From Candidatus Enterousia sp. (GTDB taxonomy: Bacteria > Pseudomonadota > Alphaproteobacteria > Rs-D84), in the NCBI GenBank assembly GCA_045613785.1, contig JAZLBQ010000026.1:12697-76696 (forward strand): a DNA stretch of 64,000 nt, written 5' to 3'. Of the stretch, positions 932-52,352 are shown one piece after another (the stretch's first letter is position 1; each line of letters begins with the position of its first letter). The notes beneath the pieces were generated by a model. The model ran no database searches. It was not told the origin of the DNA and saw nothing but the letters and a program-made list of their open reading frames with translations. Made by a program: the position numbers and the translations under genes.

Positions 932-2014
932 TTACTCTTCAGAATCCACCGCTGATGTTTCTTCATCATCGATTGGACCAGTTGTCATTTCTTCGGCTAT
1001 TCCGGACGAACGTGCCATAATTTTATTCAACAATTCTTCCTGTTCTGCCGGGTGATCTTTCAACCACTGACGAGCGTTAGCCTCGCCCTGCCCCATACGT
1101 TCACTGTTATAAGAATAGAAACTGCCTGCTTTTTCAATCAAGTCATATTTCACACCCATATCCAGAATTTCACTTATTCTTGAAATACCTTCACCATACA
1201 TAATCTTGAAATCAACAGTTCTAAATGGTGGTGCAACCTTGTTTTTAACAATTTTAACACGTGTTTCATTACCGACAATATTTTCTTTGTCTTTGATTTG
1301 TCCTGTTCTACGAATATCCAAACGCACCGACGCATAGAACTTTAACGCATTACCACCCGATGTTGTTTCTGGATTACCGAACATAACCCCAATCTTCATA
1401 CGAATTTGATTGATAAAGATAAGCAATGTATTACTGCGAGAAACAGACCCAGCCAATTTTTTCAAACTTTGACTCATAAGTCTTGCTGTTGTTCCAACGA
1501 ATGAATCCCCAATATTTCCTTCCAATTCTGCCTTTGGCACCAATGCCGCCACAGAATCAATTACAACAACATCAACCGCACCAGATTTAATCAAAGTATC
1601 TGCGATTTCCAATGCCTGTTCCCCAGAATCTGGCTGTGAAATAATAAGATTCGAAACATCAACACCCAACTTTTTTGCATAAGAAGGATCTAATGCATTT
1701 TCCGCATCAATATATGCACACGTTCCGCCTTTTTTCTGTGATTCTGCAACCGCATGCAACGCTAATGTTGTCTTACCTGATGATTCAGGGCCATATATTT
1801 CGACTATACGTCCTTTTGGATAACCGCCGACACCCAACGCAATATCCAACCCTAACGAGCCTGACGAAATCGCCTCTATATTTTGCTGCGATCCATCGCC
1901 CATTTTCATAATGGCTTCTTTACCGAACTGTTTTTGAATTTGTGCCAACGCAGATTCCAACGCTGGATTTTTTCCAGCCACTCCGCTATCTTTTGCAGCA
2001 TCTTTTTTTGCCAT
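932..2014 (-). CDS. recA: recombinase RecA
   Basis: 360-aa ORF with the Walker [10 protein letters not shown] and a RecA core ([59 protein letters not shown]). Confidence 0.95.
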
Positions 2015-2077
2015 AATTTTCCCCTTTTTTTCTTAAGGAAATCTTACAAACAAACCACGAAAAAAGCAACGAATTTG

Positions 2078-3265
2078 TTATCTTTTCTTTTCTGGCAAAA
2101 TCAACAAACTAAACGCCCCGACAAAGACGGTTACAACCCACACAGCCGACGTTGTTCCGAACAAAGAAATCACAACTGCCGCCAACATCGGTGCAATAAC
2201 ATTTGGCAAATTAGAACTTGTTCTAAACACGCCATAATACTTGGCCTGCTGTGCCCGTCCCATACCGTCAAAGAACAACAAATCATGAACAGATTCCATC
2301 AATGCCCCCGACACCTGCCATGCAACAAATATAACCAATAACGGCACACCTGTAACGATTGTTGCAGCCGCTGACAATAATGCAAAAGAACCAAATCCCA
2401 GCATCAGCCAAATTGTTTTACCAAAACGTCTAACTGCCCGCCCCATAAATTCACTAAGCAACAAATAAGGCACAATCCCCAGCGTTAAAACCCAACCCAA
2501 CACGTCCTTATCAAATCCATTTTCAACAACCAAAATCGGCACATACAAGACACGCATTGCACGCAAAGAATAATACCCAAAGTTTACCAAATAAGCCCGC
2601 ACCATACCTGGCACCCTGAAAAATTGAACAGTATTTTTCCACAACGCCCGGAAAGTCTTGCGTGGATTGACCGGCTTTATTTGTTTATCTTCCTGAACGA
2701 TTTTGAAATATTTGAACACCGACCAAGCAATCAGATAAATCACAGCAGATGCAAAAAACGCCGCCCGATTACCAAACAAATCTGCAATCCAAACAGCAAG
2801 CATTGGTGCGAACAAGGCCCCCACATTCAACCATAAATGATACCGTGAATTTAACCTAGCCATACCGATATTTTTTGAAAAATCAGACATAAACAACGGA
2901 ATCAACATACTTGACAATGTGATTGCAATCCCGGTTGTATAGTCCAGAATAACAAAAGTCCGTGGCAATATTGAAAAGCTCATCATCGCATAGCAAATTG
3001 CCATCATCAGCAAAGCAAAAAAGAACACCCGAACCTTGGAAAAAGCCCGCAAGATTTCATTTGCGAACAGCCCTACAACAAAACAGAACACAGAATAAAT
3101 AGCAACATAAATTCCGACAATTGCAGAAGACTTAAAAATCTCTAATAAAACCAGTGAATAAACAGCATTGTAAATTCCATCTGCAAACCCTGTAAACAAA
3201 CCCAGATTTGCAAACGAAAAGCCACTAACACTTTTTCGAACTGAAATATATTTATCCCTTGCCAT
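2078..3265 (-). CDS. MFS-family transporter
   Basis: 395 aa, about 12 predicted hydrophobic helices; overall resemblance to major facilitator proteins. Confidence 0.6.
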   Translation of the reverse strand: MARDKYISVRKSVSGFSFANLGLFTGFADGIYNAVYSLVLLEIFKSSAIVGIYVAIYSVFCFVVGLFANEILRAFSKVRVFFFALLMMAICYAMMSFSILPRTFVILDYTTGIAITLSSMLIPLFMSDFSKNIGMARLNSRYHLWLNVGALFAPMLAVWIADLFGNRAAFFASAVIYLIAWSVFKYFKIVQEDKQIKPVNPRKTFRALWKNTVQFFRVPGMVRAYLVNFGYYSLRAMRVLYVPILVVENGFDKDVLGWVLTLGIVPYLLLSEFMGRAVRRFGKTIWLMLGFGSFALLSAAATIVTGVPLLVIFVAWQVSGALMESVHDLLFFDGMGRAQQAKYYGVFRTSSNLPNVIAPMLAAVVISLFGTTSAVWVVTVFVGAFSLLILPEKKR

Positions 3266-3319
3266 ATTGATAAATTATAGCATAAAAAAAACAAATCAGC
3301 AAACGCAAGGAATCAAAAT

Positions 3320-3430
3320 TTTAATGAAATTAAATAGAATAATTTAGATACGGACAGTGCCGTCCCCGCTGTGTCCAGAAGCGACATAAGGGAACGGCAC
3401 CGTTCGCAGATGAATTATTATATTTAATTT
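3320..3430. repeat. MITE-like palindromic element, copy 1 (TIR AAATTAAATAGAAT / ATTATATTTAATTT with internal hairpin)
   Basis: Near-identical to copies at 16011-16120 and 22661-22760. Terminal inverted repeats plus an internal imperfect palindrome gcggacagtgccgtcccc...gggaacggcaccgttcgc. Overlaps the yebC stop codon. Confidence 0.8.
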
Positions 3431-4140
3431 GCGGCAGTAAACACCTTCTGCACATCATCATTCGCATCCAATGCATCAACTAACTTTTCCAATTTAGCAT
3501 ACGCTTCGTCGTCCAAGTCCATTGGCATATTTGGAAGCCATGTCAATTCTGCCTGTTCTGGTTCACCCAATTTATCAGCCAAGATTTTTTGTGCATTGAT
3601 AAAATCTTCTGGTTTTGTTGTGATGATAAAACCTTCTTCGGATGTTTCCAGGTTATCAGCATTAGCCTCCATAATGATTTCCATCATTTCATCTTCAGTT
3701 TTGCCGATTGATGCAGGATACATAATCTGACCGGCACGTGTAAACATAAAGACAACACTGCCTTCTTCACCCATATTTCCGCCATTTTTACCAAAGATGT
3801 TACGAATTTCTGGCACTGTGCGACGTGGGTTATCGGTCAAGGCCTCTACAATAACAGGCACTGCCCCTGGTCCATAACCTTCATATCTTACTGCTTCATA
3901 GTTTTCGGTATTTGACCCCGATGCTTTATCGATTGCACGTTTGATATTATCGTTCGGCATAGAATTCTTGCGTGCTGTCAAGATTGCCAAACGCAGGCGT
4001 GGATTATTATCAGGGTTTTTATCACCCAGCTTTGCCGCCATTGTAATTTCACGTGCTAATTTTGTAAACAAACCACTTCGTGCTGCGTCTGCTGCACCTT
4101 TTTTGTGTTGGATATTATGCCATTTACTATGTCCACTCAT
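3424..4140 (-). CDS. yebC: YebC/PmpR-family transcriptional regulator
   Basis: 238 aa; MSGHSKWHNIQHKKGAADAARSGLFTKLAREI is the canonical YebC N-terminus. Confidence 0.9.
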   Translation of the reverse strand: MSGHSKWHNIQHKKGAADAARSGLFTKLAREITMAAKLGDKNPDNNPRLRLAILTARKNSMPNDNIKRAIDKASGSNTENYEAVRYEGYGPGAVPVIVEALTDNPRRTVPEIRNIFGKNGGNMGEEGSVVFMFTRAGQIMYPASIGKTEDEMMEIIMEANADNLETSEEGFIITTKPEDFINAQKILADKLGEPEQAELTWLPNMPMDLDDEAYAKLEKLVDALDANDDVQKVFTAAN

Positions 4141-4190
4141 ATTTGACCTTTTTATTTATTTAGGTTAAAATCACCCCAAAAGGATAGCAA

Positions 4191-4784
4191 ATGATTGGTA
4201 AATTGCAAGGCATAGTTGACTATATTGGCGACGGATATGTAATTTTATTGACAGGGGGTGTCGGCTACAAGGTTTATACTGCCGAATACCTGCCGCACAA
4301 AAGCACGGTAGAGCTGTGGATAGAAACAATTGTCCGAGAAGATTCCATACGCCTATTTGGTTTTACCAGTCTATCTGCACAAAACCTGTTTAATATGCTA
4401 ACGGGGGTTTCTGGTGTTGGTCCAAAGGTTGCTTTGGCAATACTTGGGACAATAAATTCCGACACATTGATGTCAGCGATTGCGACAGGCGACGCAAAAA
4501 CGATTGCTACTGCCCCAGGGGTTGGCAAAAAGATGGCAGAAAAAATCATTGTTGAATTAAAGAACAAAGTAGGTGGCATATCTGCGACATTATTTGCCCC
4601 AGAAGTTGACACAACTATGACAGCATCGTCTGCCCTACCAGATTTATTGATGGCATTAGAATCCTTGGGCTATCGCCGTCTAGACATTATTGAAATGGCA
4701 CAAAAGTTGGTGAATCAAAACCCAACCGCAGACGTATCTAAACTGGTTCCCCTGGCATTAAAAGAAATCAGCAAAGGCAAATAA
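4191..4784 (+). CDS. ruvA: Holliday junction branch migration protein RuvA
   Basis: 197 aa; MIGKLQG...GVGYKV N-terminus and the HhH segment GVSGVGPKVALAILG. Confidence 0.9.
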   Translation: MIGKLQGIVDYIGDGYVILLTGGVGYKVYTAEYLPHKSTVELWIETIVREDSIRLFGFTSLSAQNLFNMLTGVSGVGPKVALAILGTINSDTLMSAIATGDAKTIATAPGVGKKMAEKIIVELKNKVGGISATLFAPEVDTTMTASSALPDLLMALESLGYRRLDIIEMAQKLVNQNPTADVSKLVPLALKEISKGK

Positions 4785-4788
4785 AACA

Positions 4789-6114
4789 ATGAACAATAAC
4801 GACACAATTTTTGCACTTTCATCTGGGCACGGCAAATCAGGCGTTGCGGTTATTCGCATATCTGGCGACAAACTGCACGACGTATTTTCCACTTTTATAA
4901 ACAAGCCTGAATTTACCCCACGCCAGGCATATTTTTGCAATCTTCACGACAATAATAATGACCTGCTGGATCAATGCCTGGCAATATATTTTCCTGCTCC
5001 ACACAGTTTCACAGGCACTGACGTTATTGAATTACACACACACGGTGCACCTGCAACAATCAATGCGGTATTTGAATACCTAAAGACATTAGGCATGCGT
5101 CTTGCGACCCCTGGGGAATTTTCACGTCGTGCATTTTATAATAACAAAATGGACTTAGCAGATGTTGACGGTCTGGCGGCATTACTTGACGCCCAAACAG
5201 ACCAGCAACGCAAACACGCCCTTAAATCAATGCTGGGTTCAGACAGCCAGATTTACAACACCTGGCGTAATCAGATGGTTGAAATATCGGCTTATGCTGC
5301 TGCTATCCTTGATTACAGTCCTGATGATTTACCAGAAAACATATCTGAAACAATAAAATCCAGAACATCAAAATTATACATTGAAATAACCAATGCATTA
5401 AAAAAATACAAAACATCACGTGCAATCCGTGGCGGTATAAATATTGCATTAGTTGGCGAAACAAACGTTGGTAAATCATCAATATTTAATTACATTGTTG
5501 GTTCTAATCGCGCGATTGTATCTGATATTGCTGGCACTACACGTGATGTCATATCTGCAAATCTTGACATTGACGGATACCTGGTAAATTTATCAGACAC
5601 GGCAGGTCTGCGTGAAACAGACGATATAATTGAATCAATCGGGATACAGCGAACAAAATCAGAAATCAAAAACGCAGATATTGTCTTGCACGTTTACACG
5701 CCGGACACTGTTCCACTGTTACGCATAGATGAATCCCGCATTGGTCCAAATCCAAACATAAACATTGTGAACAAGTGCGACACAATTCCTCAATCAGAAT
5801 ACGACTATGAATTTGGTCTGCCCATATCTGCCAAGACAGGTATTGGAATGGATGATTTAATGGAAACAATCCGCAATAAAATTCACGAGATATTTGACAC
5901 CACAGAAAACAGCCTTTGCATAAATGCCCGCACCAAAGAATTATTAGAAACTGCCCAATCCGAATTAGGCAACGCACTAAACGCTGGCGAAAATTACGAC
6001 ATATTTGCCGAACACACTCGCCGTTCTGCGGACGCAATTGGCAAGATTCTGGGCACAATCACGGCAAGCGAGGTTCTAGACAAAACCTTTGGGCAACTAT
6101 GCCTAGGCAAATAA
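4789..6114 (+). CDS. mnmE: tRNA modification GTPase MnmE
   Basis: 441 aa; G-domain GETNVGKSS, DTAGLRE, and a C-terminal CLGK tail typical of MnmE/TrmE. Confidence 0.9.
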   Translation: MNNNDTIFALSSGHGKSGVAVIRISGDKLHDVFSTFINKPEFTPRQAYFCNLHDNNNDLLDQCLAIYFPAPHSFTGTDVIELHTHGAPATINAVFEYLKTLGMRLATPGEFSRRAFYNNKMDLADVDGLAALLDAQTDQQRKHALKSMLGSDSQIYNTWRNQMVEISAYAAAILDYSPDDLPENISETIKSRTSKLYIEITNALKKYKTSRAIRGGINIALVGETNVGKSSIFNYIVGSNRAIVSDIAGTTRDVISANLDIDGYLVNLSDTAGLRETDDIIESIGIQRTKSEIKNADIVLHVYTPDTVPLLRIDESRIGPNPNINIVNKCDTIPQSEYDYEFGLPISAKTGIGMDDLMETIRNKIHEIFDTTENSLCINARTKELLETAQSELGNALNAGENYDIFAEHTRRSADAIGKILGTITASEVLDKTFGQLCLGK

Positions 6115-6132
6115 CTCCCCAATCAGCATAGA

Positions 6133-6315
6133 TAAAATTAAATAGAATAGTCTAGAAAAAAACAATCGGGAATCGTAGTGCACAAACGCTACATACGATT
6201 CCCGATTTAAATTATAATTTATTGAAAATAAAAGATAATAGTATAGATACGGGTGGGGACGATATCGTAGTGCTCAAACGCTACATAAGATATCCCCCCC
6301 ACCCATAGATATGCC
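6133..6315. repeat. MITE-like element, tandem divergent double unit (copy 2a/2b)
   Basis: Starts with AAATTAAATAGAATAG. Two hairpins (aatcgggaatcgtagtg...ctacatacgattcccgatt and gggtggggacgatatcgtagtg...gatatcccccccaccc) share the loop core GTGCxCAAACGCTACATA with the other copies. Confidence 0.6.
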
Positions 6316-6329
6316 ATCAGATTTTATTT

Positions 6330-7910
6330 TTATTCGTGGCGGTCAGGATACATTCCATCTATCAGATTCTGACGAACCACGTGATGTTTAACCTTTTGCG
6401 TGCCAGTCAAAGGCAAATCCTCGGTTGTCATCGCAAAGTGTGTAACCCACTTATAACTGGCAACTTTTTTATTTGCTGCTGCAATTTCCGCCCCCAGTTT
6501 TTCGATTGTCATACCTGGTTCAACACTGAACACACCATATGAAACCGTTTTATCTTTGACCTTGTGTTCAAAGACAGCAACGTTTTTAACACCAGGGATT
6601 GTGATAAACATACCTTCTAATTCATCTGGATAAACGTTTTTACCACTGTCTAAAACGATAACCTGCTTTTTGCGACCAGCAAAATGCAATTCACCGTTTT
6701 TGTCCATTGTAACCATATCACCAGTATTAAAGAAGCCACGTTCATCAAAGATTTCTTTATTGGCTTCTTCGTTATTCAAGTATCCACCGAACACCTGATG
6801 TCCACGCAACCACAGAACACCAACGCCATCTTCGTTTTTATCACGAATTTCGCATTCATTATTCAGTGTTGGTCCACCAAAAGCGAACGGCAAACGTTTT
6901 TTAGTTGGCTTTGAAATACAGATTGGTCCAACAGTTTCGGTCAAACCATACCCCTGGATAAATGTCAACCCCAAACGTTCATAGAAAGTTTCAACCTCTG
7001 GCTTAGTTGCTGCACCACCTGCAATCAACAAGCGTGCACGTCCACCAAAGACATCCAAGATTGGTTTTTGGACTTTACGCACCAGCGCACCCAAACCAAT
7101 TTTCTGCAATGTCTTGCCGTATTTCAATACAAAAGACACCAACCCCCATTTTTTCTGTGCTTTGACGTTATCAATAATTTTGTTCCGGAAAACTTCCCAC
7201 AATCTTGGCACAGCTGGGATAACTTGTGGTCGGAATTTTTTAAAGTCCGCCATAATTTCCTTTGGATTGATTGTTGGCTGCAACAACACCCCTGCCCCAT
7301 AGTGCAAAGTTGCCAAGATTTCGACTGCGAAACCGAACACGTGATACATTGGCAAAAATCCATACAGATAATCACCTGGTTTAATCCATTCAGCCATTGA
7401 TTCCAATGAATTTGTGCATTCAACGATATTAAAGTGTGTCAACGGCACAACCTTTGGCTGCCCTGTTGAGCCTGATGTAAAAGACATTGTTGCAATATCC
7501 AAAGATTCTACTGCAGCAGGCTTTAAATCAGGGTTTATATCGCCATCTTTCTTGGTAATTTCATAGAAAGTAAATTTATCTGTTTTGTAAACAAAAGACT
7601 TTTCTGCACACACGAACTTACAGTCTGTGATTGTTGCCATATTGTCATATTCAAATGGGGTCAGATTTGTATCCAACAACAATACTGTCCCCCCCAGATA
7701 CCAAATTGCGAATAACGATATTGGGAATTCTGGGATATTATGCGACAAGATACCAATTACATCGCCTTTTTTAACACCTGCTTTATCAAGTGAAGCGGCT
7801 CTAGCCTTTACCAAACCAATGAAGTCTTTATACGTAACCCCTTCACGCACCAGATATAAATTATCTGGATATGTCTGTGCTGTTTTTTCCAGCATTTGAT
7901 ACATATTCAT
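6330..7910 (-). CDS. long-chain fatty-acid--CoA ligase (AMP-binding enzyme)
   Basis: AMP-binding motif TSGSTGQPKVV, GYGLTE, and the C-terminal K of the adenylation domain. Start set at the internal MNMYQMLEKTAQTYPDN; the upstream 52 codons of the ORF look non-coding. Confidence 0.8.
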   Translation of the reverse strand: MNMYQMLEKTAQTYPDNLYLVREGVTYKDFIGLVKARAASLDKAGVKKGDVIGILSHNIPEFPISLFAIWYLGGTVLLLDTNLTPFEYDNMATITDCKFVCAEKSFVYKTDKFTFYEITKKDGDINPDLKPAAVESLDIATMSFTSGSTGQPKVVPLTHFNIVECTNSLESMAEWIKPGDYLYGFLPMYHVFGFAVEILATLHYGAGVLLQPTINPKEIMADFKKFRPQVIPAVPRLWEVFRNKIIDNVKAQKKWGLVSFVLKYGKTLQKIGLGALVRKVQKPILDVFGGRARLLIAGGAATKPEVETFYERLGLTFIQGYGLTETVGPICISKPTKKRLPFAFGGPTLNNECEIRDKNEDGVGVLWLRGHQVFGGYLNNEEANKEIFDERGFFNTGDMVTMDKNGELHFAGRKKQVIVLDSGKNVYPDELEGMFITIPGVKNVAVFEHKVKDKTVSYGVFSVEPGMTIEKLGAEIAAANKKVASYKWVTHFAMTTEDLPLTGTQKVKHHVVRQNLIDGMYPDRHE

Positions 7911-7980
7911 AGTATAAAATTCCTTGTTGTTTTTTATATTGGACACGGATATTATACTCAGTAAACCAAGGAAATCAATT

Positions 7981-8751
7981 ATGAAAATTTTGACATTAAA
8001 TATAAACTCTATCCGTGCCCACATTGAAAGTTTCATTGACATTTTGCGTCGTGGTGAATACGACACAATCCTTGTTCAGGAATTAAAGGTTGAAACTGCA
8101 AACTTTCCACATGCCCTATTTGATGAATATGGATATAACGTGAAAGTTTTTGGTCAAAAGTCCTGGAATGGCGTTGCAACATTTTCCAAATTCTCCATCG
8201 AAGACGCTATCCTTGGCATGCCAAATTACGCAGATCCTAACGCCCGTTTTCTAGAATGTGTTGTTGACGGTCACGTTCGCCTGATAAACACATACATGCC
8301 AAACGGGGACACAGTTGAATCGCCCAAATTTCCATACAAACTAGAATGGATGCGTGCCTTTACAGATTACATATCCCAATATTTGGACAGTCCAGAACCT
8401 GTAATCATTGGTGGTGATTTCAACGTTGCAATCCAGGATCGAGATATCTGGAAGCCCAAAAATTACGAAGGCATTGCAATTTCTGCACCTGCCGCACGCA
8501 GCATTATGAACCAATGGCTAGACGCAGGCTGGACAGACGCCTGGCGTTCTCTGCACCCAGACGAAATAGATTATACCTGGTATGGCTATCGTGGCCGTGA
8601 CACAGTCGGCAACAAACAAGGCCTTCGCCTGGACTACTTTTTGTGCAACAAAACTGCTACAAAAATGATAAAGAATTGTGAAATAGACCTTGAACCACGC
8701 CTGGCCACAAAACCAACAGACCACTGTGGTTTAATGCTTGAAATAAAATAA
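7981..8751 (+). CDS. xth: exodeoxyribonuclease III
   Basis: MKILTLNINSIRAH N-terminus, the EEP-fold motifs QELK, GGDFNV and DHC near the C-terminus. Start moved to the internal ATG at 7981. Confidence 0.9.
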   Translation: MKILTLNINSIRAHIESFIDILRRGEYDTILVQELKVETANFPHALFDEYGYNVKVFGQKSWNGVATFSKFSIEDAILGMPNYADPNARFLECVVDGHVRLINTYMPNGDTVESPKFPYKLEWMRAFTDYISQYLDSPEPVIIGGDFNVAIQDRDIWKPKNYEGIAISAPAARSIMNQWLDAGWTDAWRSLHPDEIDYTWYGYRGRDTVGNKQGLRLDYFLCNKTATKMIKNCEIDLEPRLATKPTDHCGLMLEIK

Positions 8752-8783
8752 AATAAAATAAAATAAAATAAAATAAAATAAAA
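8741..8783. repeat. (AAATA)8 pentanucleotide microsatellite
   Basis: Eight perfect AAATA units overlapping the last three codons and stop of xth. Confidence 0.9.
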
Positions 8784-8800
8784 CAGCACAACAAAGACCT

Positions 8801-8834
8801 AAATAGAATGGTAAAACCCCAACCATTCTATTTA
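8801..8834. repeat. mini-palindrome made of the MITE TIR motif (AAATAGAATGG...CCATTCTATTTA)
   Basis: An 11-bp inverted repeat around a 12-nt spacer. It reuses the AAATAGAAT terminal motif of the MITE family and also supplies the TAA stop of the addB-like gene. Confidence 0.6.
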
Positions 8835-11345
8835 ATCTTTTGCTCTTTTCAAATCATCAAACGCCTGATATTTCTTATCGCTTGTTTCATAGTATTCATA
8901 TCCTGCATTTCCTGCCGAATACATATTAAACAACTCTGTTGTTTTATTGACTGCGGCATCTATCATTTGTTGTGTTTGCTCTTTATCATAATTGATAACA
9001 CGTGCATCACCATTTTTTAACTGCAAGAACTTCATCACAGGTGTTTTAGACAATTCTGTTGTTTCGATTGGAAATCCATCTGTTTGCAGGATATAAGCCT
9101 CTAATGGTAATTGTGGCATATTGCCCTGCTCTAATTGACTTTTTGATGGTGCAGAACCTGTTTTAATATCCATCACCACCCCGTCCCAGAATCTATCTGC
9201 CTTGGCACGAACTGTTCGTCCAGCAATTTTTACACTACCCTCTTTTTCAATTCCTGGGTTTTGAATATCTTTCAGTGCCTCGGACACCACGGGTGCTATT
9301 TCATAAAACCGCTTTCGCCAGAAATGAAACAACACACTATTTGTTCCCAGCAATTCACGAGCCTTATTCTCCATTTGAGCCGCCAACACATCAGGATTCC
9401 AATCGGTTGCATCTTCGATAACCTTGTGAACCAGATTTCCAAAATCACGTCCATCGACCCCGACCCAATAATCGTCCAATACCCTCAGTCTTAAAATATG
9501 CTTTACATAAAAAGCGTATGGATTATGAATTAAATATTCCAGTTCTGTCACATATACATCAGACCAATCTGCTGGTGGTGTTGGCACAGAATAATCCAAA
9601 CTCTGCATTTTCACATTATCTAATTTTGCCACGGCCTGTGTAATATCTTTATTTCTGTCAAACTTTCCTTTGGCCACAATCACACGTGAAATAAATCTAG
9701 ACTCGGCGGTTTGCACCCCACCTGAAACAGTGCTTCGCAGCCACCAAACCTGTGAACCACAGGACAGATTCATAAAATCCAACGACTGCAACGAAACCTT
9801 GCGGTCAGGCGACGGCAATCCAATTTTTTCAGCCAAATGCCAGGGCAGCCAGGCATTTTCATAACCACGTGCCGGAAACATTCCATCATTTAGTCCTGTT
9901 AAAATCACAACATCTGCGGTCTGCATTCTGGATTCGATTGTTCCCAGCACAACGACCTGTGCTTTATCGTCCATAACCCCACGCACAGACACATTTGATA
10001 TGGCATCTAAAACAAAAGCACGTGCATCAACCAGACTCAACTGCACACCAATTGCAGCCAACGCATCTGAAACCTTTTTAATTTCAATCCATATCTGCAC
10101 AGATGTTGCATCGTCCACCACAAAGTTCGGTGTAAATTCCGCCTGATGTTTTTGAACAATCAAAGAAATCGTATCAAATAAATTGTGTTTGCATTCTGCA
10201 CAAATTTCATCAAATTCATTTGAAGACGTTTCAATCCATCCATCAATCATATTCAGCAACGCCCGCCCTGTTGCGGTCATTGTTCCTGGGACACCACCTG
10301 AAAAATCAGCCTTTATTCCCCGACTTGCCAATTCTGTTGCAATACGTTGATTTCCGGCTGCGTCAGGTGTTATAACTAAAACTGTTTTATTTTCATCTAA
10401 TGCCCTTTGTGCAATTTCTGCAACGGCTGCAGCCTCGACTGATTCACGTGAACATTCGACCAAATGACAGTGCGACAAATCTACATCACTATTCATCACT
10501 GAAACATCATTTCCAAAAGCCTTATTCATAAAATCAATTGCAGATGGTCCAACATCAATCGGCACAACATCATCAGCCTCTAAGCCCAGTCTTGATAAAA
10601 ATTTATATTCAGAATTATATGGATTTGTATTTAATTGAAAATCCTGAACACGCCCCGATATTTTTCCAGACAAAATTATTCGTCCATGTGGTTGCTTGGC
10701 AATTTCAACCATCAAATCAGCTGTCGCTGGAACACTAGCAGTTGACGCACAAACAACAACCAATTTATATCGATTCAAATAATCTTTCCAACGACGAATA
10801 TCCCTATTTTTAGCCATTGCAGATGTCAATCTTCCGCCTGCATAATCATTCATAAAAGTTGACATTATGCTTAAAAATCTGGCCTTATTTTGAAAATGTC
10901 GTGCATACTTTTCATCAACCAATCCCGCCCAGTCAACAGTTGCAACATCAATTCCTTCATTTTCCAGATAATCGCACATACGCACTAAATCTCGTGCCAA
11001 TGTCAAAGCAGTTGTCCAGTTTCCAACACTTGCATCTGCGACCAGCAATCTAGCCATTAAAACAATACGTTCAGTATTTGAAATAATATCCCTAGAACGA
11101 ATATCTTCCCAGTCTTCATCATTTGGGTTATCAACCCCTTCCCCCAGCGCAACCAACTGTGGCAAAATCACAGCACCACCAGACTTTTGCACAATCATTT
11201 TTTCGACTGTTCGCACAGCACGACGACTGGGCAAGAAAATCAGCATATCTGCCAACGCCACCCCAGAAGCACTGATAAGTTTCCACAACGCCTCTGAAAT
11301 CTTGGCAGGATTAGTTGCGTAAAAAACGCTATGATTATTTGACAC
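8832..11345 (-). CDS. addB: AddB-like double-strand break repair protein (PD-(D/E)XK helicase-nuclease family)
   Basis: 837 aa. The N-terminus ADMLIFLPSRRAVRTVEKM resembles alphaproteobacterial AddB. No addA was seen adjacent. Confidence 0.5.
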   Translation of the reverse strand: MSNNHSVFYATNPAKISEALWKLISASGVALADMLIFLPSRRAVRTVEKMIVQKSGGAVILPQLVALGEGVDNPNDEDWEDIRSRDIISNTERIVLMARLLVADASVGNWTTALTLARDLVRMCDYLENEGIDVATVDWAGLVDEKYARHFQNKARFLSIMSTFMNDYAGGRLTSAMAKNRDIRRWKDYLNRYKLVVVCASTASVPATADLMVEIAKQPHGRIILSGKISGRVQDFQLNTNPYNSEYKFLSRLGLEADDVVPIDVGPSAIDFMNKAFGNDVSVMNSDVDLSHCHLVECSRESVEAAAVAEIAQRALDENKTVLVITPDAAGNQRIATELASRGIKADFSGGVPGTMTATGRALLNMIDGWIETSSNEFDEICAECKHNLFDTISLIVQKHQAEFTPNFVVDDATSVQIWIEIKKVSDALAAIGVQLSLVDARAFVLDAISNVSVRGVMDDKAQVVVLGTIESRMQTADVVILTGLNDGMFPARGYENAWLPWHLAEKIGLPSPDRKVSLQSLDFMNLSCGSQVWWLRSTVSGGVQTAESRFISRVIVAKGKFDRNKDITQAVAKLDNVKMQSLDYSVPTPPADWSDVYVTELEYLIHNPYAFYVKHILRLRVLDDYWVGVDGRDFGNLVHKVIEDATDWNPDVLAAQMENKARELLGTNSVLFHFWRKRFYEIAPVVSEALKDIQNPGIEKEGSVKIAGRTVRAKADRFWDGVVMDIKTGSAPSKSQLEQGNMPQLPLEAYILQTDGFPIETTELSKTPVMKFLQLKNGDARVINYDKEQTQQMIDAAVNKTTELFNMYSAGNAGYEYYETSDKKYQAFDDLKRAKD

Positions 11346-14523: not shown

Positions 14524-15531
14524 TTAATATCTTGATTTTTTTAATTGATTAAATAATTCGTATTCTATTCCATAGGAACTGATTTCTGTTGCGGATTTAT
14601 GGTATGCTTTGTCGTTTATATGAGCAGGTACATACGTAGCACGATCAATATACTGAATTTGTGGTCCCAATGCACCTTGGCGTGGTTTTTGATAATCTAA
14701 TGCATGGTGTATTTCGTGTGCTAATACGCTAACCATGCTATAAAAGAAATCGTTTTTATCTGGATGATGTTTTTTTACGTTCGTGATATTTACACGTACA
14801 ACTGATGATTTATATGCGTTTGGGTGTTTTTCTAGATCTTTGAGAAATTCATCCAAAAGTTCTTTCTTTTCTGTTTCGGATATATTTGATGGAAAAGTTA
14901 TGCTATAGGCGTGCGTGTGAAAACCATCGGTAACATCGTATCTGCCATTTGGTTTTACATCAGAATTTTCCCAATCAGTTATGACTTTTGAATCAATATA
15001 GCAGTCATATTCTTTGCAAAAATCTTTAGTTAAGGCATTAAATAAAGCATTATAAGCATCGATTATGCTACTTTCATCAGCCTCACGAGCAGCCACAACC
15101 AAATCTTTATGATTGTTTAATCTGCGTATCCAATCGGCAGAAAATTGTTTAGCCAATATGTATATATTTACTGTTCCTGCTTTGAATTTATCGCGTATTT
15201 TTTCTGGATTTTCATTGTTTTTGAACATTTGACTTAATTCTCTGTCGAATGTATCAAATTCACCTTTTATATAATTCAAATCCTTACTAACAGCGAACAA
15301 TGTAATAGGCAAATTTTTTGGCCTGTATTGATCCAATGAAATCGCTTTTGTAATTTTTGTGACCAATTCATCCGGTGAAAATTTGGTTAATAACCTGTTG
15401 GCAAAACCATCAATATCATTCATTTGTTTAAGTATACTATCTTTTTCATTTTGGTTTTTGGCGGCTTTATATTGTTTTAACAAATCAATGGTTTGTAATG
15501 CAGAGTTTATTTCAAGATTTTCATTATCCAT
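14524..15531 (-). CDS. hypothetical protein with HExxH zinc-metalloprotease motif
   Basis: 335 aa with no signal peptide; the VLAHEIHHALDY motif sits near the C-terminus. Confidence 0.5.
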   Translation of the reverse strand: MDNENLEINSALQTIDLLKQYKAAKNQNEKDSILKQMNDIDGFANRLLTKFSPDELVTKITKAISLDQYRPKNLPITLFAVSKDLNYIKGEFDTFDRELSQMFKNNENPEKIRDKFKAGTVNIYILAKQFSADWIRRLNNHKDLVVAAREADESSIIDAYNALFNALTKDFCKEYDCYIDSKVITDWENSDVKPNGRYDVTDGFHTHAYSITFPSNISETEKKELLDEFLKDLEKHPNAYKSSVVRVNITNVKKHHPDKNDFFYSMVSVLAHEIHHALDYQKPRQGALGPQIQYIDRATYVPAHINDKAYHKSATEISSYGIEYELFNQLKKSRY

Positions 15532-15907: not shown

Positions 15908-16010
15908 CAACAAAATCAAAGCCATCTGATTATATACGAAATGAAAACAAAATCAAGAACAAAGTAAAAGAAGAATAAAAATAAATTCCTGCCCCACCCA
16001 AATCCTGAGT

Positions 16011-16120
16011 TTAATGAAATTAAATAGAATGATTTAGATGCGGACAGTGCCGTCCCCGCAGTGTCCACAAGCGACATAAGGGAACGGCACCGTTCGCAGA
16101 TGAATTATTATATTTAATTT
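16011..16120. repeat. MITE-like palindromic element, copy 3
   Basis: About 95% identical to copy 1. Its right TIR supplies the TAA stop of the 80-aa Cys-rich gene. Confidence 0.8.
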
Positions 16121-16361
16121 ACCGCAATGGCGGGAAACAATCACCCCCCACTTCCGGACAACAGTTAAATCCTAAATCAGCCATGTCGGTATATACTTCA
16201 CCTGGACAACAACCATATTTATCTGGTTGTGCACCATAATCACAGACCGGCATATCACTAGGACGCATTGCATCACGATTAGCCCCTGTTAAAACACCAA
16301 AAGCAAAGCCTACAAAAAAAGCAATTACAACTGAAACTATTGAACAGATGTTTTTCTTCAT
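16119..16361 (-). CDS. small secreted cysteine-rich protein (six-Cys C-terminal module)
   Basis: 80 aa with signal peptide MKKNICSIVSVVIAFFVGFAFG; C-terminal module CDYGAQPDKYGCCPGEVYTDMADLGFNCCPEVGGDCFPP. Confidence 0.6.
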   Translation of the reverse strand: MKKNICSIVSVVIAFFVGFAFGVLTGANRDAMRPSDMPVCDYGAQPDKYGCCPGEVYTDMADLGFNCCPEVGGDCFPPLR

Positions 16362-22353: not shown

Positions 22354-22513
22354 TTCTCAAAAACAAACGCAAAATAGATGATGAATTTCTGGTGCCCGCA
22401 GGGTGCCAGAAAATTATCAGATATTGCGTATTGTGCAAATTTTACGATGGGCGTGTATTGAACATACATAACCTGAGTAAAATTAAACAAACGCAAAATA
22501 GATGGTGAATTTC

Positions 22514-22587
22514 TGGTGCCCTAAGCAAGAATCGGACTTGCGACTCGTCCTTACCAAGGACGTGTTTTACCACTAGACTATTAGGGC
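22514..22587 (-). tRNA. tRNA-Thr (GGT)
   Basis: Reverse complement GCCCTAATAGTCTAGTGGTAAAACACGTCCTTGGTAAGGACGAGTCGCAAGTCCGATTCTTGCTTAGGGCACCA. Confidence 0.85.
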
Positions 22588-22660
22588 GACAAAACTTTTT
22601 TTCAATTATACGAAGCCACAAGAAAAAATCAAGGATAAAAAATAAAGAATCCTAAACGTT

Positions 22661-22875
22661 TAAATGAAATTAAATAGAATGATTTAGATGCGGACAGTGC
22701 CGTCCCCACAGTGTCCAGAAGCGACATAAGGGAACGGCCCGTTCGCAGATGAATTATCAACAAATAAATGAAATTAAATAGAATAGTTTAGATATGTGAA
22801 AATCCGTTGGCGTAATGTATTGAACATACATGAGCCAACGGATTTACGCATAGATGAATTATTATATTTAATTTT
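22661..22875. repeat. MITE-like element, tandem pair (copy 4a canonical, 4b with a different stem aaatccgttgg/ccaacggattt)
   Basis: 4a (22661-22760) is ~95% identical to copies 1/3 and carries a truncated right TIR. 4b (22767-22875) has the same termini but a different, perfect 11-bp stem. The end of 4b supplies the TAA stop of 22874..23431. Confidence 0.75.
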
Positions 22876-23431
22876 ACTCGATACAACAGTTGACGGCATT
22901 CCTAACCCAGTTCTTTAACTTGCCCATACCACTCTTTTTTTCAGCCTTTGCGGTTTCAGGTGGACATTCAGCAGTTTTTACTGATTCTGATTTTTTTGTT
23001 GCTTTGGCTTCTTTTTTTTCGCCGGTCAGCATCCCCATATTCAATCCCCAGAACATACAATACAATTCATAGGATTGATCAAACAAAGAATACGCAGTTT
23101 CTTTATCCCCTGCAGCCAAGGCTTTAGTTCCAACTTCGAACACACGCATAGATGCCGCCAACAAGTGCTTTGAAATACACCAAACCTCACCTTCATAAGA
23201 AGGGATAATTTTCAGCATTGCATTTTTACGCATTTCACGGACTTCGTTTATCAAGTCATAGAATTCTGTCTTGCCAGTTTTTGCACCTGAAAACATTAAA
23301 TGTTCTTCGATAGAAATCAGGTTCATAATACCGATTGTCAAATCTTGGTCGCTAGACAAATCTTTTGGATTTACTTTTTTTGCGGCATCTAACTTTTCGA
23401 CAAATTCCTGAACAGATTCAATTTTTTTCAT
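22874..23431 (-). CDS. hypothetical protein (C-terminus ...NAVNCCIE)
   Basis: 185 aa with no signal peptide and a Lys-rich tail ending in CCIE. Confidence 0.45.
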   Translation of the reverse strand: MKKIESVQEFVEKLDAAKKVNPKDLSSDQDLTIGIMNLISIEEHLMFSGAKTGKTEFYDLINEVREMRKNAMLKIIPSYEGEVWCISKHLLAASMRVFEVGTKALAAGDKETAYSLFDQSYELYCMFWGLNMGMLTGEKKEAKATKKSESVKTAECPPETAKAEKKSGMGKLKNWVRNAVNCCIE

Positions 23432-33432: not shown

Positions 33433-33515
33433 AAAAAATCCCCTACTTGGGGATTTTTTAATATTAAATAACACATAACAGATAAAAAAAATCCCCCAAA
33501 CGGGGGAATTTATTA
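33433..33515. terminator. two adjacent hairpin terminators (aaaaaatcccctacttggggatttttt ; aaaaaaaatcccccaaacgggggaattt)
   Basis: Sit between convergent 32843..33412(+) and pal(-). Confidence 0.7.
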
Positions 33516-33932
33516 TTTAACCGTTGTTGTAGCATTACGGTTCCACTTCCAGACTTCTTCACCAGAACCCTGAACTAATGGACGTTCTTTACCATATGAG
33601 ATAGTAGAGATACGTTTTGCATCGACACCGTCTTTTACGATAACAGCTTTTGCTGCATTTGCACGACGTGCACCCAATGCCAAGTTGTATTCTGTTGAAC
33701 CACGTTCGTCGCAATTACCTGCGATTTGGATTTTAACATCTTCGTGATTTTTCATATACAAAGCCTGACCCAGCAAGTTATTCTGTGCATCTTCTGAGAT
33801 TTCATAAGAATTAAAACCAAAGAATACACGCTGATCGTTCAAGTCTGCTGGTTCAACGATTTTAGAAGAACCGCCGCACGCTGCCAACAAGCCTGCAACG
33901 CCTGCCAACAAAGCAAAGTTTTTGATTTTCAT
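33513..33932 (-). CDS. pal: peptidoglycan-associated lipoprotein Pal (OmpA-family)
   Basis: 139 aa; lipobox LAAC; OmpA-like motif NLALGARRANAAKAVIV. Confidence 0.85.
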   Translation of the reverse strand: MKIKNFALLAGVAGLLAACGGSSKIVEPADLNDQRVFFGFNSYEISEDAQNNLLGQALYMKNHEDVKIQIAGNCDERGSTEYNLALGARRANAAKAVIVKDGVDAKRISTISYGKERPLVQGSGEEVWKWNRNATTTVK

Positions 33933-35387: not shown

Positions 35388-35471
35388 AAAAAAATCCCCG
35401 TTTGGGGATTTATTTTTTCAAGAACAGTTGATTTATCCAATAAAAAAATCCCCACTTGGGGATTTTCATTA
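35388..35471. terminator. two hairpin terminators (aaaaaaatccccgtttggggattt ; aaaaaaatccccacttggggatttt)
   Basis: Sit between infC(+) and the lipoprotein gene(-). Confidence 0.7.
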
Positions 35472-42599: not shown

Positions 42600-43583
42600 T
42601 CACATTTTATAGATTCTAACAAAACTTGTTTCACTAGTTCCCGTTGAACCACTTCCACCATCACCACCATTTACAACAAGTGTTGTTGATGTTCCAGCAC
42701 CATTGATTGCACCACCACCGCCGCCACCACCATAAGATATTGCCGTCTGACCACCGCATGAAAAACTAACACTTTCACCGCCCTTGCCACCTATGACCGA
42801 TGCATATTCTGTGCATTTATATGTTTTACAACTGGTGGCATTACCGCCATCGCCACCACTTTCTGGTGTTCCGTCCGTTCCCGGGTCAATACTCACAGTA
42901 AAATCTGGATAAGATGACGCATTATTATATTGCCACGACGTCCCCCCCTTATCACTTGGCGAACCACCGCCACCGCCACCAACACCATATGTATCTGTTT
43001 TATATATTCTAAATCCCCGATATCCATTTGCACCGCTAAGTCCAGACTTTCCACCAAAACCATTGCCTATTGCCACAGCAGTTGCACTATACAATCTGTT
43101 CACGGCACTATTATTATATGAAATTGTGCATGTATTTCCGGGACCACCTTCGGCCCGCCAAACACGTTCACCAACAACCAGCAAAGAATCGACCCCTGAT
43201 GCACCACCACCAAAAGTCCCGTGTTTTGTTCCCGTTTTCTTCACACTTCCTGGATTACCATCGCCACCACGAAACACATGAACTTCTGTTGGTTCAAACA
43301 CTGAAAACAAAGCAGACACAACCGATGTTTCAGACAAATCAACAAAGTCCACACATTCATCGTTTTTCAGTCCGACACCACCACGCAATTCCGCCCGATA
43401 ACATCCTGGTTCCAAGGTAATAGAATTACAAACATTGATATCATTTTCTTCATAGACTAATTCTTCACTACCGGACATAACGCAAGCCCCCTGTGGCACT
43501 TCGTCTGCCGCCATATAGATATTACCTCCAGGTCCGGTTATATATAATGCATTTGCTAAGATCAAGGCAGGTATAAACATCAA
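42600..43583 (-). CDS. glycine-rich secreted protein, paralogue A
   Basis: 327 aa; N-terminal hydrophobic signal, poly-Gly runs (GGGGGGS, GGGGGGAING). Shares the blocks LVYEEN.IN.CNS, YRAELRGG, VFRGGDGN, GGGASGVDSLLVV, ISYGGGGGGG and ETSFV.IYK with 43592..44596. Confidence 0.55.
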   Translation of the reverse strand: MMFIPALILANALYITGPGGNIYMAADEVPQGACVMSGSEELVYEENDINVCNSITLEPGCYRAELRGGVGLKNDECVDFVDLSETSVVSALFSVFEPTEVHVFRGGDGNPGSVKKTGTKHGTFGGGASGVDSLLVVGERVWRAEGGPGNTCTISYNNSAVNRLYSATAVAIGNGFGGKSGLSGANGYRGFRIYKTDTYGVGGGGGGSPSDKGGTSWQYNNASSYPDFTVSIDPGTDGTPESGGDGGNATSCKTYKCTEYASVIGGKGGESVSFSCGGQTAISYGGGGGGGAINGAGTSTTLVVNGGDGGSGSTGTSETSFVRIYKM

Positions 43584-43591
43584 GTATTACT

Positions 43592-44596
43592 TTAACCTAT
43601 TTTATAAATTTTTACAAAGCTTGTTTTACTTGTTCCTTTTGAACCACTGGCACCATCACCACCATTGACACAGTCCGTGTCACACCACTGCCCACTTGAT
43701 TCACATCCCGACTGATAAAAAAAACACATGCCACCACCACCACCGCCACCATACGAAATTGCCGTCGTCCCAGCACAAGAAAACACAACATTTTCTCCAC
43801 CCTTTCCACCATAACCATAATTAGAGGTCAAAGAATTTTCTTTTTTATTTTTTACAGTTCCACCATCACCACCGGCACTTGCAGTTGCGTTACTACCACC
43901 TGCAATATAAGAATACGAAGAACTTGCCTCACCTCCTATTCCGCCACCAATATTATTTGAACCACCACCGCCAGCACCACAATAACCACGTGCCTGGTAT
44001 TTAATTGTTGACCCATTATTTATGGTTTTATCTGCCGTAATACCACCGCCACCGCCATAACAAACGTCAAACAAAGCATACCCCCCACCATTCAAACCAC
44101 TCACTGTTCCTGTGATACACTTTGAACCAACCGCCCCTGTTGCCCTGATTACACGTCCTTCAACAACCAACAACGAATCCACCCCTGACGCACCACCACC
44201 AGAAATCTGATGTGAATTCGCCCTTTTGCTATCATTACCATCGCCACCACGAAAAACATCAATCACTGTTTCTTGGTTTATTTTGAAAATACTTGAAACA
44301 ATTTCACTATCAAAACGTTGAGTTCCAATTCCGGACTGACAAGACGCAGGTTTTCCCCCTGTTCCACCACGCAATTCTGCCCGATAAATTCCTGCTTCCA
44401 ACCGCACAGAATTACAGGTATTTATCGAGTTTTCTTCATACACCAGTGTTTCAGATCCATCATAAATTCCACCTTCTACTGGGATTAAAGCTACGTGAAA
44501 AACCTCGCCTGCGGCGTTTTTTATATGCATAGCAGGCGACGTCAACTGTTGCTGTTGTGCAACAATTTGAATATTATCAACATTTATTACAGGCAT
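43592..44596 (-). CDS. glycine-rich protein, paralogue B (no obvious signal peptide)
   Basis: 334 aa; the same conserved blocks as paralogue A; tandem duplicate 8 nt upstream. Confidence 0.55.
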   Translation of the reverse strand: MPVINVDNIQIVAQQQQLTSPAMHIKNAAGEVFHVALIPVEGGIYDGSETLVYEENSINTCNSVRLEAGIYRAELRGGTGGKPASCQSGIGTQRFDSEIVSSIFKINQETVIDVFRGGDGNDSKRANSHQISGGGASGVDSLLVVEGRVIRATGAVGSKCITGTVSGLNGGGYALFDVCYGGGGGITADKTINNGSTIKYQARGYCGAGGGGSNNIGGGIGGEASSSYSYIAGGSNATASAGGDGGTVKNKKENSLTSNYGYGGKGGENVVFSCAGTTAISYGGGGGGGMCFFYQSGCESSGQWCDTDCVNGGDGASGSKGTSKTSFVKIYKIG

Positions 44597-44734: not shown

Positions 44735-45310
44735 ATGAAAAAGATAATCGCAACAATTTTACTATTTATTTTCAGCACCCTGCCAGGACAATCCAAAGAT
44801 TTTGCCCCATATCTTGGTGTTGATATAGGATTAAACATTGCACAATACACATCAGACTACGGTCTGGACAAGAATTATTACAACGGAACAATCAACGCAG
44901 GTGCACGCATTGGCAGTAATTTTGGAATAGAATTATTTTATACTCACACGCTACCCAACGAAGTTGATTATGTTTTTTCGGCTGAAACAATAACCAACCA
45001 AGTTTATTATAATGCATTTGGTTTTGACATTTATGCATATTATAACCTGCCATCGAACTTTGATTTTTTCACATCATTTGGGGTTGCAAATTATAAAACA
45101 TATAACAAATTGACCTATACCACACCGTTCGATGAAGCATCTGCCAAGACAGACTTTACCAACACCACGACCCGATTTGGAATAGGCCTGTTATACACAT
45201 TTTCTGACGATAATGTATCAGGTCTTATTCAATATCAATATGCCCCGATAAACAATGAAATAATAAATACTATATCTGAATTTTCGATTGGTTTTCGATA
45301 TATATTCTAA
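44735..45310 (+). CDS. small outer-membrane beta-barrel protein (OmpA/OmpW-like porin family)
   Basis: 191 aa; signal peptide, alternating aromatic/hydrophilic strands, C-terminal ...GFRYIF. Confidence 0.6.
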   Translation: MKKIIATILLFIFSTLPGQSKDFAPYLGVDIGLNIAQYTSDYGLDKNYYNGTINAGARIGSNFGIELFYTHTLPNEVDYVFSAETITNQVYYNAFGFDIYAYYNLPSNFDFFTSFGVANYKTYNKLTYTTPFDEASAKTDFTNTTTRFGIGLLYTFSDDNVSGLIQYQYAPINNEIINTISEFSIGFRYIF

Positions 45311-45338
45311 AAAAATCCCCGGAAAGGGGATTTATTTT
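45309..45338. terminator. bidirectional hairpin terminator
   Basis: aaaaaaatccccggaaaggggatttatttt, between the OMP gene(+) and rfbD(-). Confidence 0.75.
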
Positions 45339-50370: not shown

Positions 50371-50505
50371 ATGAAATTTTTAAGTTCATTAAAGGCTTGG
50401 AAGAAACGTGGAAATGTAAAACAGATCCGTCGTGGAAAGCAAGTTATCTTAATAGACCCTGACAATCCAAAGTTCAAAGCGAAACAGGGCTTTAAGAAGA
50501 AATAA
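50371..50505 (+). CDS. rpmJ: 50S ribosomal protein L36, cysteine-less (Rcc-type) variant
   Basis: 44 aa MKFLSSLKAWKKRGNVKQIRRGKQVILIDPDNPKFKAKQGFKKK. This matches the Rickettsia-type L36 (MKVVSSLKSLKKR...KRFKAKQG); followed by a terminator. Absent from the ORF track because it is under 60 aa. Confidence 0.8.
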   Translation: MKFLSSLKAWKKRGNVKQIRRGKQVILIDPDNPKFKAKQGFKKK

Positions 50506-50532
50506 AAAATCGCCGCTTGGCGGTTTTTTTTT
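50504..50532. terminator. rho-independent terminator
   Basis: aaaaaatcgccgcttggcggttttttttt. Confidence 0.8.
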
Positions 50533-52324: not shown

Positions 52325-52352
52325 AAATTCCCCCTTGTGGGGGATTTTTTTT
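52324..52352. terminator. bidirectional hairpin terminator
   Basis: aaaaattcccccttgtgggggatttttttt. Confidence 0.8.

Follow-up and report, generated by a model that had tools for sequence, protein, structure and literature searches.

The 64,000-nt stretch of Candidatus Enterousia DNA analysed here (the window) carries, among 20 neighbouring ORFs scanned with Pfam, genes for RecA, an MFS transporter, YebC, RuvA, MnmE, an AMP-binding enzyme, an exonuclease, an AddB-like nuclease and parts of ABC transporters; eleven of the 20 gave no match, and no transposase was found among them. Six units of a palindromic repeat lie at four sites in the window, all on the + strand. An earlier note on this DNA had placed six units at four loci, and a covariance model built from relatives and run with filters off returns exactly these six from the same sequences, together with weak matches to two decayed remnants (8795–8838 and 22410–22512). 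The left-end motif, the 18-mer AATGAAATTAAATAGAAT, occurs in the window as four exact matches and one match with two mismatches (0.48 expected), and the 23-mer right-end motif as three exact matches (0.00 expected). The two ends are inverted repeats of each other, complementary by eye at 19 of 23 positions in the window units, and a single rod-like hairpin is predicted for each unit with a z-score of −6 to −12 relative to dinucleotide shuffles, so that the palindromic multi-copy family with inverted ends described in the earlier note is real.

The first unit, u1 (3327–3430, +; 102.3 bits with the covariance model), is a full 104-nt unit preceded by a clade-specific left extension, TTTAATG, at 3320–3326. 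A dimer follows at the MnmE gene (4789–6114, +): u2 (6135–6224, +; 38.4 bits) is its first unit, lies 17 nt past the MnmE stop codon, and combines a type-1 left end with a degenerate right end, and u3 (6226–6329, +; 67.1 bits) has type-2 ends, AAAATAAAAGATAATAGTATAGAT ... ATAGATATGCCATCAGATTTTATTTT. A full unit with the u1 stem type is found in u4 (16017–16120, +; 107.2 bits), and the last site is an array in which the internal unit u5 (22667–22770, +; 56.4 bits), again of the u1 stem type, carries the linker CAACAAATAAATG in place of an outer right end and is joined to u6 (22771–22874, +; 108.2 bits), a full unit with a different stem and apical loop. The termini had been taken as common to all six units; type-1 ends do recur, but u3 has a second end type (AAAATAAAAGATAAT... 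/ ...CAGATTTTATTTT), and the array-internal u2 and u5 are without the outer right end. The element had also been credited with supplying the TAA stop of three genes, which applies in full to yebC only (− strand), whose stop (3424–3426) lies wholly inside the right end of u1. The other two stops only overlap the element, that of the 80-aa gene (16119–16121) by the final two Ts of u4 and that of gene 22874–23431 (−; stop at 22874–22876) by the last T of u6, whereas the stop codon of the converging AMP-binding gene 6330–8066 (6330–6332) only abuts the right end of u3.

Of the two remnants, the mini hairpin at 8795–8838 (20.9 bits, assigned to neither strand) consists of family end sequence only, TAAATAGAATGGT and ACCATTCTATTTAAT around a loop, and provides the TAA stop (8832–8834) of the AddB-like gene 8832–11345. 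Among relatives it is the same in L057, absent from L095 and represented by a full, diverged unit in L081. The decayed unit at 22410–22512 (+; 25.6 bits, E = 0.0055; core GTGTATTGAACATACAT) sits between two 37-nt direct repeats that duplicate the tRNA-Thr 3′ end. The two copies (22361–22397 and 22485–22521) are 97% identical, the second overlaps the 3′ (CCA) end of tRNA-Thr (22514–22587, −), and the 87 nt between them carry the decayed core, which indicates a 124-nt partial tandem duplication that includes the tRNA-Thr end. Elsewhere in the window, a pentanucleotide microsatellite (AATAA/AAATA, ~8 repeats; 8742–8779) directly follows the stop of ORF 7924–8751 and is shorter in L057, a relative with 94% identity. 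Two tandem paralogous ORFs of ~1 kb with Gly-rich repeats (GGTGGTGGCGG, coding strand) lie on the − strand at 42600–44596, and GC content falls to 30–35% at 38–42 kb; this region may be a variable surface-protein locus or acquired DNA.

In a search of one genome per species, the left-end pattern matched at least 115 stretches. About 100 of the matches listed fall in 51 different Rs-D84/Ca. Enterousia assemblies, so that the copies beyond the window are many and occur in at least 51 related species-level genomes. All 51 assemblies are metagenome-assembled, labelled Alphaproteobacteria or Candidatus Enterousia, and come from the guts of ruminants, deer, yak and other hosts. Thirteen of the matches listed come from unrelated organisms and are without the remaining element; 12 of these 13 were among the 100 loci searched with the covariance model, and none gave a match. 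Enterousia belongs to the uncultured order Rs-D84, with genomes of ~0.75–1.0 Mb (PMC12306168). One pair of loci, L006/L057, shares 92–94% identity with the window over 11.8 kb, so that the window derives from a close relative of that Enterousia genome. The window YebC protein has matches solely on short metagenome contigs. No copy of the element was found in phage, plasmid and IMG/VR viral collections. With Rfam 15, only tRNAs reach the gathering threshold in the window, and the best sub-threshold match of the element is a plant microRNA hairpin (39 bits versus a threshold of 96). The searchable literature, queried with the end sequence, Enterousia and Rs-D84, yielded no description of such a repeat, and as far as Rfam and this literature show the family is apparently undescribed. 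Six contigs (L001, L120, L121, L124, L125 and L127) terminate within a unit; the repeat thus breaks short-read assemblies of these organisms, and chimeric contigs may result.

Ninety-nine full units were extracted from the loci, and the 93 distinct ones were aligned. The left end served as the search pattern and the right end as the selector of full units, so that part of the near-invariance of the ends follows from the selection itself, in which the AGAT loop, the apical stem and the length played no role. Length is exactly 104 nt in 72 of the 99 units (range 102–106), and the consensus fold of the 93-unit alignment is one rod of 42 pairs. At its base, an AT-rich stem pairs AAATTAAATAGAATGATTT with GAATTATTATATTTAATTT and leads into a conserved symmetric internal loop, AGAT opposite AGAT with tandem G.A, above which a middle stem of ~18 bp differs wholly between subfamilies and is always paired. 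A second conserved internal loop, small and purine-rich, separates this stem from a conserved 5-bp apical stem, GTGTA/TACAT, with a 7–8-nt loop of variable sequence. The ‘loop core’ regarded as conserved in the earlier note is not constant (u6 has GTAATGTATTGAACATACATGAG), and the part that is kept is this apical stem. Its statement that internal stems differ yet stay paired is borne out now that more copies are aligned, since both sides have changed in a compensatory manner in 24 of the 42 pairs. Paired cells amount to 95.6%, versus 81.1% with the 3′ letters shuffled (0 of 500 shuffles reach 95.6%), and to only 36–47% when the partners are slid by 1–3 columns. Compensatory changes that keep pairs of the basal stem are seen at columns 15–94, 16–93 and 18–91, and in the second end type, AAAATAAAAGATAATGGTATAGAT / ATAGATATGCCATCAGATTTTATTTT, of which u3 is the window example, left and right again covary. 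Two other candidate features of the unit were set aside: small ORFs inside it (ATGATTTAG; ATGAATTATTATATTTAA) are not conserved between subfamilies, and the commonest apical loop (reverse complement TAGCGT), which resembles the CS-6 motif of plasmid single-strand origins, is present in 32 of 93 units only.

Such covariation is what selection on a hairpin of either DNA or RNA would leave, as had been proposed, and it is strong; it is, though, no argument for RNA. In an RNA stem, G.U should be far in excess on the transcribed strand, but the non-Watson–Crick cells of the variable middle stem comprise 74 A.C, 42 G.T and 72 other mismatches, and with no G.T excess there the covariation does not favour RNA over DNA. 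The selected hairpin could thus be either. Within the conserved parts, G.T pairs are kept on the element-sense strand, together with three G.A mismatches. Of the two strands, this one gives the more stable hairpin in 91 of 93 units under RNA parameters (mean difference −10.7 kcal/mol) and in 90 of 93 when DNA parameters are used. No conserved promoter was found upstream of the units. A promoter within the left end, with TAGAAT as the −10 element, was considered and rejected: the −35-like TTGCA of some clades lies 14 nt away and is absent in the window, and a transcript starting there would also lose the left arm, whose pairing covaries.

The placement of the element relative to genes follows a strict rule. 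A right end is present in 91 arrays. For 83 of these, an ORF of 100 aa or more lies no further than 300 nt to the right, and this ORF converges on the element in 83/83. In agreement with the earlier observation that copies adjoin gene 3′ ends, the ORF has its stop codon at −13 to +9 nt relative to the final base of the element in 79 of the 83 cases, mostly −2 to +2 nt, and 7 nt inside where the element's own TAA serves. On the left side (69 sites with a neighbour), a converging gene is found at 40 sites and the start of a co-directional gene at 29. At three window sites, a promoter-like sequence on the − strand separates the element from the next gene: TTGATT-16-TATAAT at 15929–15956 (between the u4 left end and tRNA-Gly), which places u4 at the end of the upstream transcription unit; TTGATT-16-TATAAT at 22605–22632 (between the u5 left end and tRNA-Thr); and TTGCTG-16-TGcTATAAT, with an extended −10, at 3274–3301 (between the u1 left end and the MFS start at 3265), the last found by eye and below the threshold of the promoter scan. 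Promoter-like sites in this position put the element in the place of a terminator. Stop-codon adjacency is probably due in part to genome compaction, and the simple terminators of the window likewise begin ~10 nt past stop codons. The majority subfamily has an AAAA-stem-TTTT arrangement; the u1/u4/u5 type of the window reads GC...GCAGATGAATT, without a clean U run after the GC stem. Simple bidirectional terminator hairpins (AAAAAATCCCC...GGGGATTTTTT) are present at 33433–33520, 35388–35468, 45310–45336, 50504–50530 and 52324–52350, and several are followed by ATTTATTATTTAA and the stop of the converging gene, resembling the element right end; these hairpins may be decayed relatives of the 104-nt element.

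Orientation is constrained as well. Both orientations occur together at none of 96 loci, and wherever one contig carries several loci, at distances of up to ~90 kb, their orientation is the same. Read on the element-sense strand, the GC skew is −0.055 for ORFs on that strand and −0.241 for ORFs on the opposite strand; averaging the two removes the coding-strand effect and gives a negative value in 56/56 loci (median −0.14), and the element-sense strand is the C-rich strand in all of them. By the usual GC-skew rule, the C-rich strand has the sequence of the lagging strand and serves as template for the leading strand. On this rule the element-sense strand is the leading-strand template and the gene touched at its stop codon is a leading-strand gene, with ‘leading strand’ assigned here by GC skew and the strand bias of genes instead of a mapped origin. 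The more stable of the two hairpins would therefore always lie on the leading-strand template. Trinh and Sinden (1991) reportedly found faster deletion of asymmetric palindromes whose more stable hairpin forms on the lagging-strand template. The bias could come from such a survival filter at replication or from a single-strand copying step, and neither fully accounts for the absence of the element behind lagging-strand genes. This absence is seen in a census of junctions with intergenic gaps of at least 80 nt, in which the element is present at 39/97 leading co-directional and 46/69 convergent junctions, and at 0/50 divergent and 0/19 lagging co-directional junctions, the latter having simple terminators instead. 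Simple terminators are rarer at convergent junctions with the element (20/46 against 29/38), so that mutual exclusion of the two, which we considered, is partial only.

The same sites are occupied across species of ~72% identity. In other species the orthologous junction may instead have a simple terminator hairpin, a mini hairpin or a diverged unit, or may be empty. At the u4 site, metagenome contigs that encode an identical 80-aa protein have identical flanks, within which the window and L119 have a u1-type 66-nt interior and L123 a u6-type one; the swap begins and ends at the conserved ATCT...ATCT. Unit number varies there as well, with two units in L118 and three or more in L122. The window carries a single u1-type unit at the yebC site, where a relative of 82% identity has two u1-type units and a relative of 92% identity two u6-type units. 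One stem subfamily recurs at several sites per genome and across species: the u1 stem type is found at three window sites and in L017, the u6 stem type in the window and three other species, and the AAACGCAGTGCCGGAAACG subfamily at no fewer than five sites in one sheep genome and also in two others. Hybrid units combine arms of different subfamilies, with crossovers in the conserved core, and array-internal units, whose outer right end is missing, are joined by clade-specific linkers. Comparing strains for empty sites at an OmpA-like gene showed no polymorphism, and two other exact-protein look-ups returned no matches. The tandem arrays, hybrid units and whole-interior swaps probably result from recombination through the conserved ends and core, and turnover appears to proceed through these modules.

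Several rearrangements were noted around the same sites. In L002 (1000–1221) the yebC unit is joined to the tRNA-Gly flank, and in L126 (762–941) the 80-aa gene unit is joined to the MFS flank; these may be the reciprocal junctions that a u1–u4 exchange would leave, the two units being direct repeats separated by 12.7 kb, or else assembly chimeras. The gene blocks RecA–MFS, YebC–RuvA–MnmE and AMP-binding–exonuclease (window 960–8751) are reordered in L064, L053, L088, L102 and L105, and the breakpoints of block order fall in element-bearing intergenic regions. Downstream of a tRNA pair, the conspecific scaffold L119 carries a T5orf172/MUG113 (GIY-YIG-related) gene at 894–1544, where its counterpart in the window (14524–15531) is an unrelated 335-aa ORF without a Pfam match; the different genes mark a strain-variable spot.

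These properties invite comparison with REPINs, in which conserved ends enclose a spacer where length, hairpin formation and compensatory changes matter (PMC3116915). Like the REPIN and REP-BIME repeats of Pseudomonas and enterobacteria, the element is a ~100-nt hairpin repeat with highly conserved ends and an interior constrained in length and pairing; it is extragenic, often at gene 3′ ends, forms mosaic arrays, and is vertically inherited and long-lived with no target duplication. One possibility is a non-autonomous element of REPIN type, copied by a domesticated Y1 (HUH) transposase with a single-copy gene (a RAYT, IS200/IS605-like). The substrate of such an enzyme would be the folded single strand at the replication fork, and the enzyme, not general recombination, would be the source of orientation and turnover. 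We consider this explanation unlikely, even though it would fit the strict orientation with respect to GC skew (56/56), an orientation bias being known for single-strand transposons (PMC6006769), as well as the hairpin with conserved ends and compensatory interior, the missing target duplication, the stem subfamilies common to several species with several copies per genome, and a strain-swapped segment bounded exactly by conserved direct AGAT...AGAT. The ends, however, are AT-rich 23-mers instead of short GC-rich REP palindromes with a 5′ GTAG; their consensus is, by eye, not self-complementary, and GTAG-like sequence (GTAG/GCAG) occurs only beside the apical stem. REPINs also differ from the element in that the latter has a conserved apical stem and two conserved G.A loops, a right end on the stop codon, one orientation, leading-strand genes only and hosts with genomes below 1 Mb, and its more stable hairpin is on the leading-strand template, not on the lagging-strand template. 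RAYT genes are usually flanked by inverted copies, and no gene is so flanked at any site. Within 0.93 Mb around ~120 sites no Y1/HUH-like ORF or RAYT was found, which is a weak test with approximate queries: tblastn with approximate IS200 and IS608 TnpA queries gave a best E-value of 0.076, and a screen for ORFs with the HUH motif gave no credible candidate. The REPIN reading thus fits the architecture, without its enzyme and its REP-type ends.

The label given in the earlier note, a MITE, implies a deletion derivative of a DDE-transposase insertion sequence that is mobilised in trans through its terminal inverted repeats. The ~23-nt inverted ends, small size, lack of coding capacity and high copy number agree with this, as does the occupation of sites in some species and not others, and the element recalls Correia/NEMIS, ERIC, RUP, Bru-RS and Rickettsia RPE, lineage-specific families of many 100–150-bp copies with inverted ends that form a long hairpin when transcribed and are able to affect neighbouring transcripts. 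Those families, though, show target duplications (TA for Correia) or in-frame insertions (RPE) and both orientations, whereas here the longest direct repeats in the flanks of 52 single units average 2.58 nt versus 2.76 nt in re-paired controls; with no target-site duplication the strict MITE reading fails on a defining feature. No autonomous element is seen either: in 0.93 Mb around the copies no end pair more than 135 nt apart encloses an ORF, and phage, plasmid and viral collections are devoid of copies. Position and orientation are fixed behind a converging stop codon (83/83), and sites are occupied alike across species of ~72% identity, so that in its strict sense we regard the label as very improbable. 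A structured RNA, either a small RNA gene on the element-sense strand or a cis-acting 3′-UTR element with a protein partner at the loops, seems improbable. The very strong covariation, the three conserved G.A mismatches, the conserved G.U pairs (columns 46–63 in 89/93 units, 15–94 in 62 and 19–90 in 59) and the ~10.7 kcal/mol advantage of the element-sense fold would suit it, but G.U is not favoured in the variable stem (42 versus 74 A.C and 72 other), no gene reads into the element-sense strand at 29 of the 69 sites with a left neighbour, a conserved upstream promoter is missing (TTGCA being absent in the window and 14 nt from TAGAAT elsewhere), and Rfam offers only sub-threshold microRNA-hairpin matches. 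Most doubtful of all is an attC-like single-strand recombination site, at which a recombinase would exchange or excise the DNA between sites so that gene blocks act as cassettes. As in integron attC, an imperfect palindrome starts right at the stop of an ORF and has conserved ends, a variable paired centre and mismatches that mark one strand, and its orientation is related to replication; chromosomal integrons hold the recombinogenic attC strand on the leading-strand template, as does the element its stable-hairpin strand. The reordered element-bounded gene blocks and the two reciprocal u1–u4 junctions could be read in the same sense, but breakpoints between operons are expected in any case and L002 and L126 are possibly chimeras. 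Moreover, the 93-unit alignment is without GTTRRRY / RYYYAAC core sites, no integrase is seen, and the units do not form a cassette array and are scattered among housekeeping operons (RecA, YebC, RuvA, MnmE, tRNAs) with their own promoters. Overall, the element resembles known bacterial hairpin repeats, with stricter placement rules.

Building on the observed structure, covariation, phyletic spread, stop-codon position, skew-linked single orientation and strain-level turnover, we favour, with about even confidence, a lineage-specific member of the REP/REPIN/BIME class of hairpin repeats, one that marks where leading-strand transcription units end and whose turnover is by recombination. A unit, whose right end rests on a leading-strand stop codon and whose other side faces a downstream promoter or converging gene, would most likely serve, to judge from its position, as the 3′-end hairpin of the transcription unit, that is, as a terminator-like insulator and 3′ protector, and in convergent pairs this role would be bidirectional. 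It would in this respect be akin to the repeated terminators formed by Neisseria DUS pairs, Haemophilus USS pairs and mycobacterial TRIT, which are likewise sequence-family hairpins that end transcription units, and it replaces ordinary terminators at some orthologous sites as they do. Unlike those, it is much longer, has three conserved modules and a fixed length, is found on one replication strand only, and in many copies has no canonical U tract. Copies would not move by cut and paste; recombination through the conserved ends and core would add, remove and replace them at fixed sites, and the orientation found would be the one expected to survive replication or the trace of a single-strand copying step. 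The first colonisation of new sites and the absence from lagging-strand gene ends are beyond what recombination alone explains. The 20-nt ends, the two conserved G.A loops and the fixed 104-nt length exceed the needs of a terminator, which implies a putative sequence-specific factor that would read the conserved modules. We suggest only tentatively, and at low confidence, that the outer ends, the AGAT/AGAT loop and the apical GTGTA/TACAT stem form the binding site of a lineage-specific protein on the folded single strand; if so, candidates for this putative protein would include a transposase or recombinase that has been domesticated and a factor for termination or replication.

Most known REPs and REPINs are those of free-living proteobacteria with large genomes, where their persistence and role for the host are debated, and shrunken genomes normally lose useless DNA. 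A comparable hairpin family is kept here in at least 51 species of a lineage with genomes below 1 Mb. If a putative protein of the kind just suggested reads the folded strand, the repeat would be a host-integrated marker of leading-strand transcription-unit ends in a genome of ~0.9 Mb, and its copying or exchange at the replication fork would involve no classical transposon. It would then represent either a REPIN-like replicator with a new enzyme or a new coordination of transcription ends with replication. The rules that the family obeys are sharp (a fixed length, a right end on the stop codon, one orientation, leading-strand genes only and interiors that are swapped between strains), and they bear on termination, on the replication-dependent stability of asymmetric palindromes and on the missing recognition protein.
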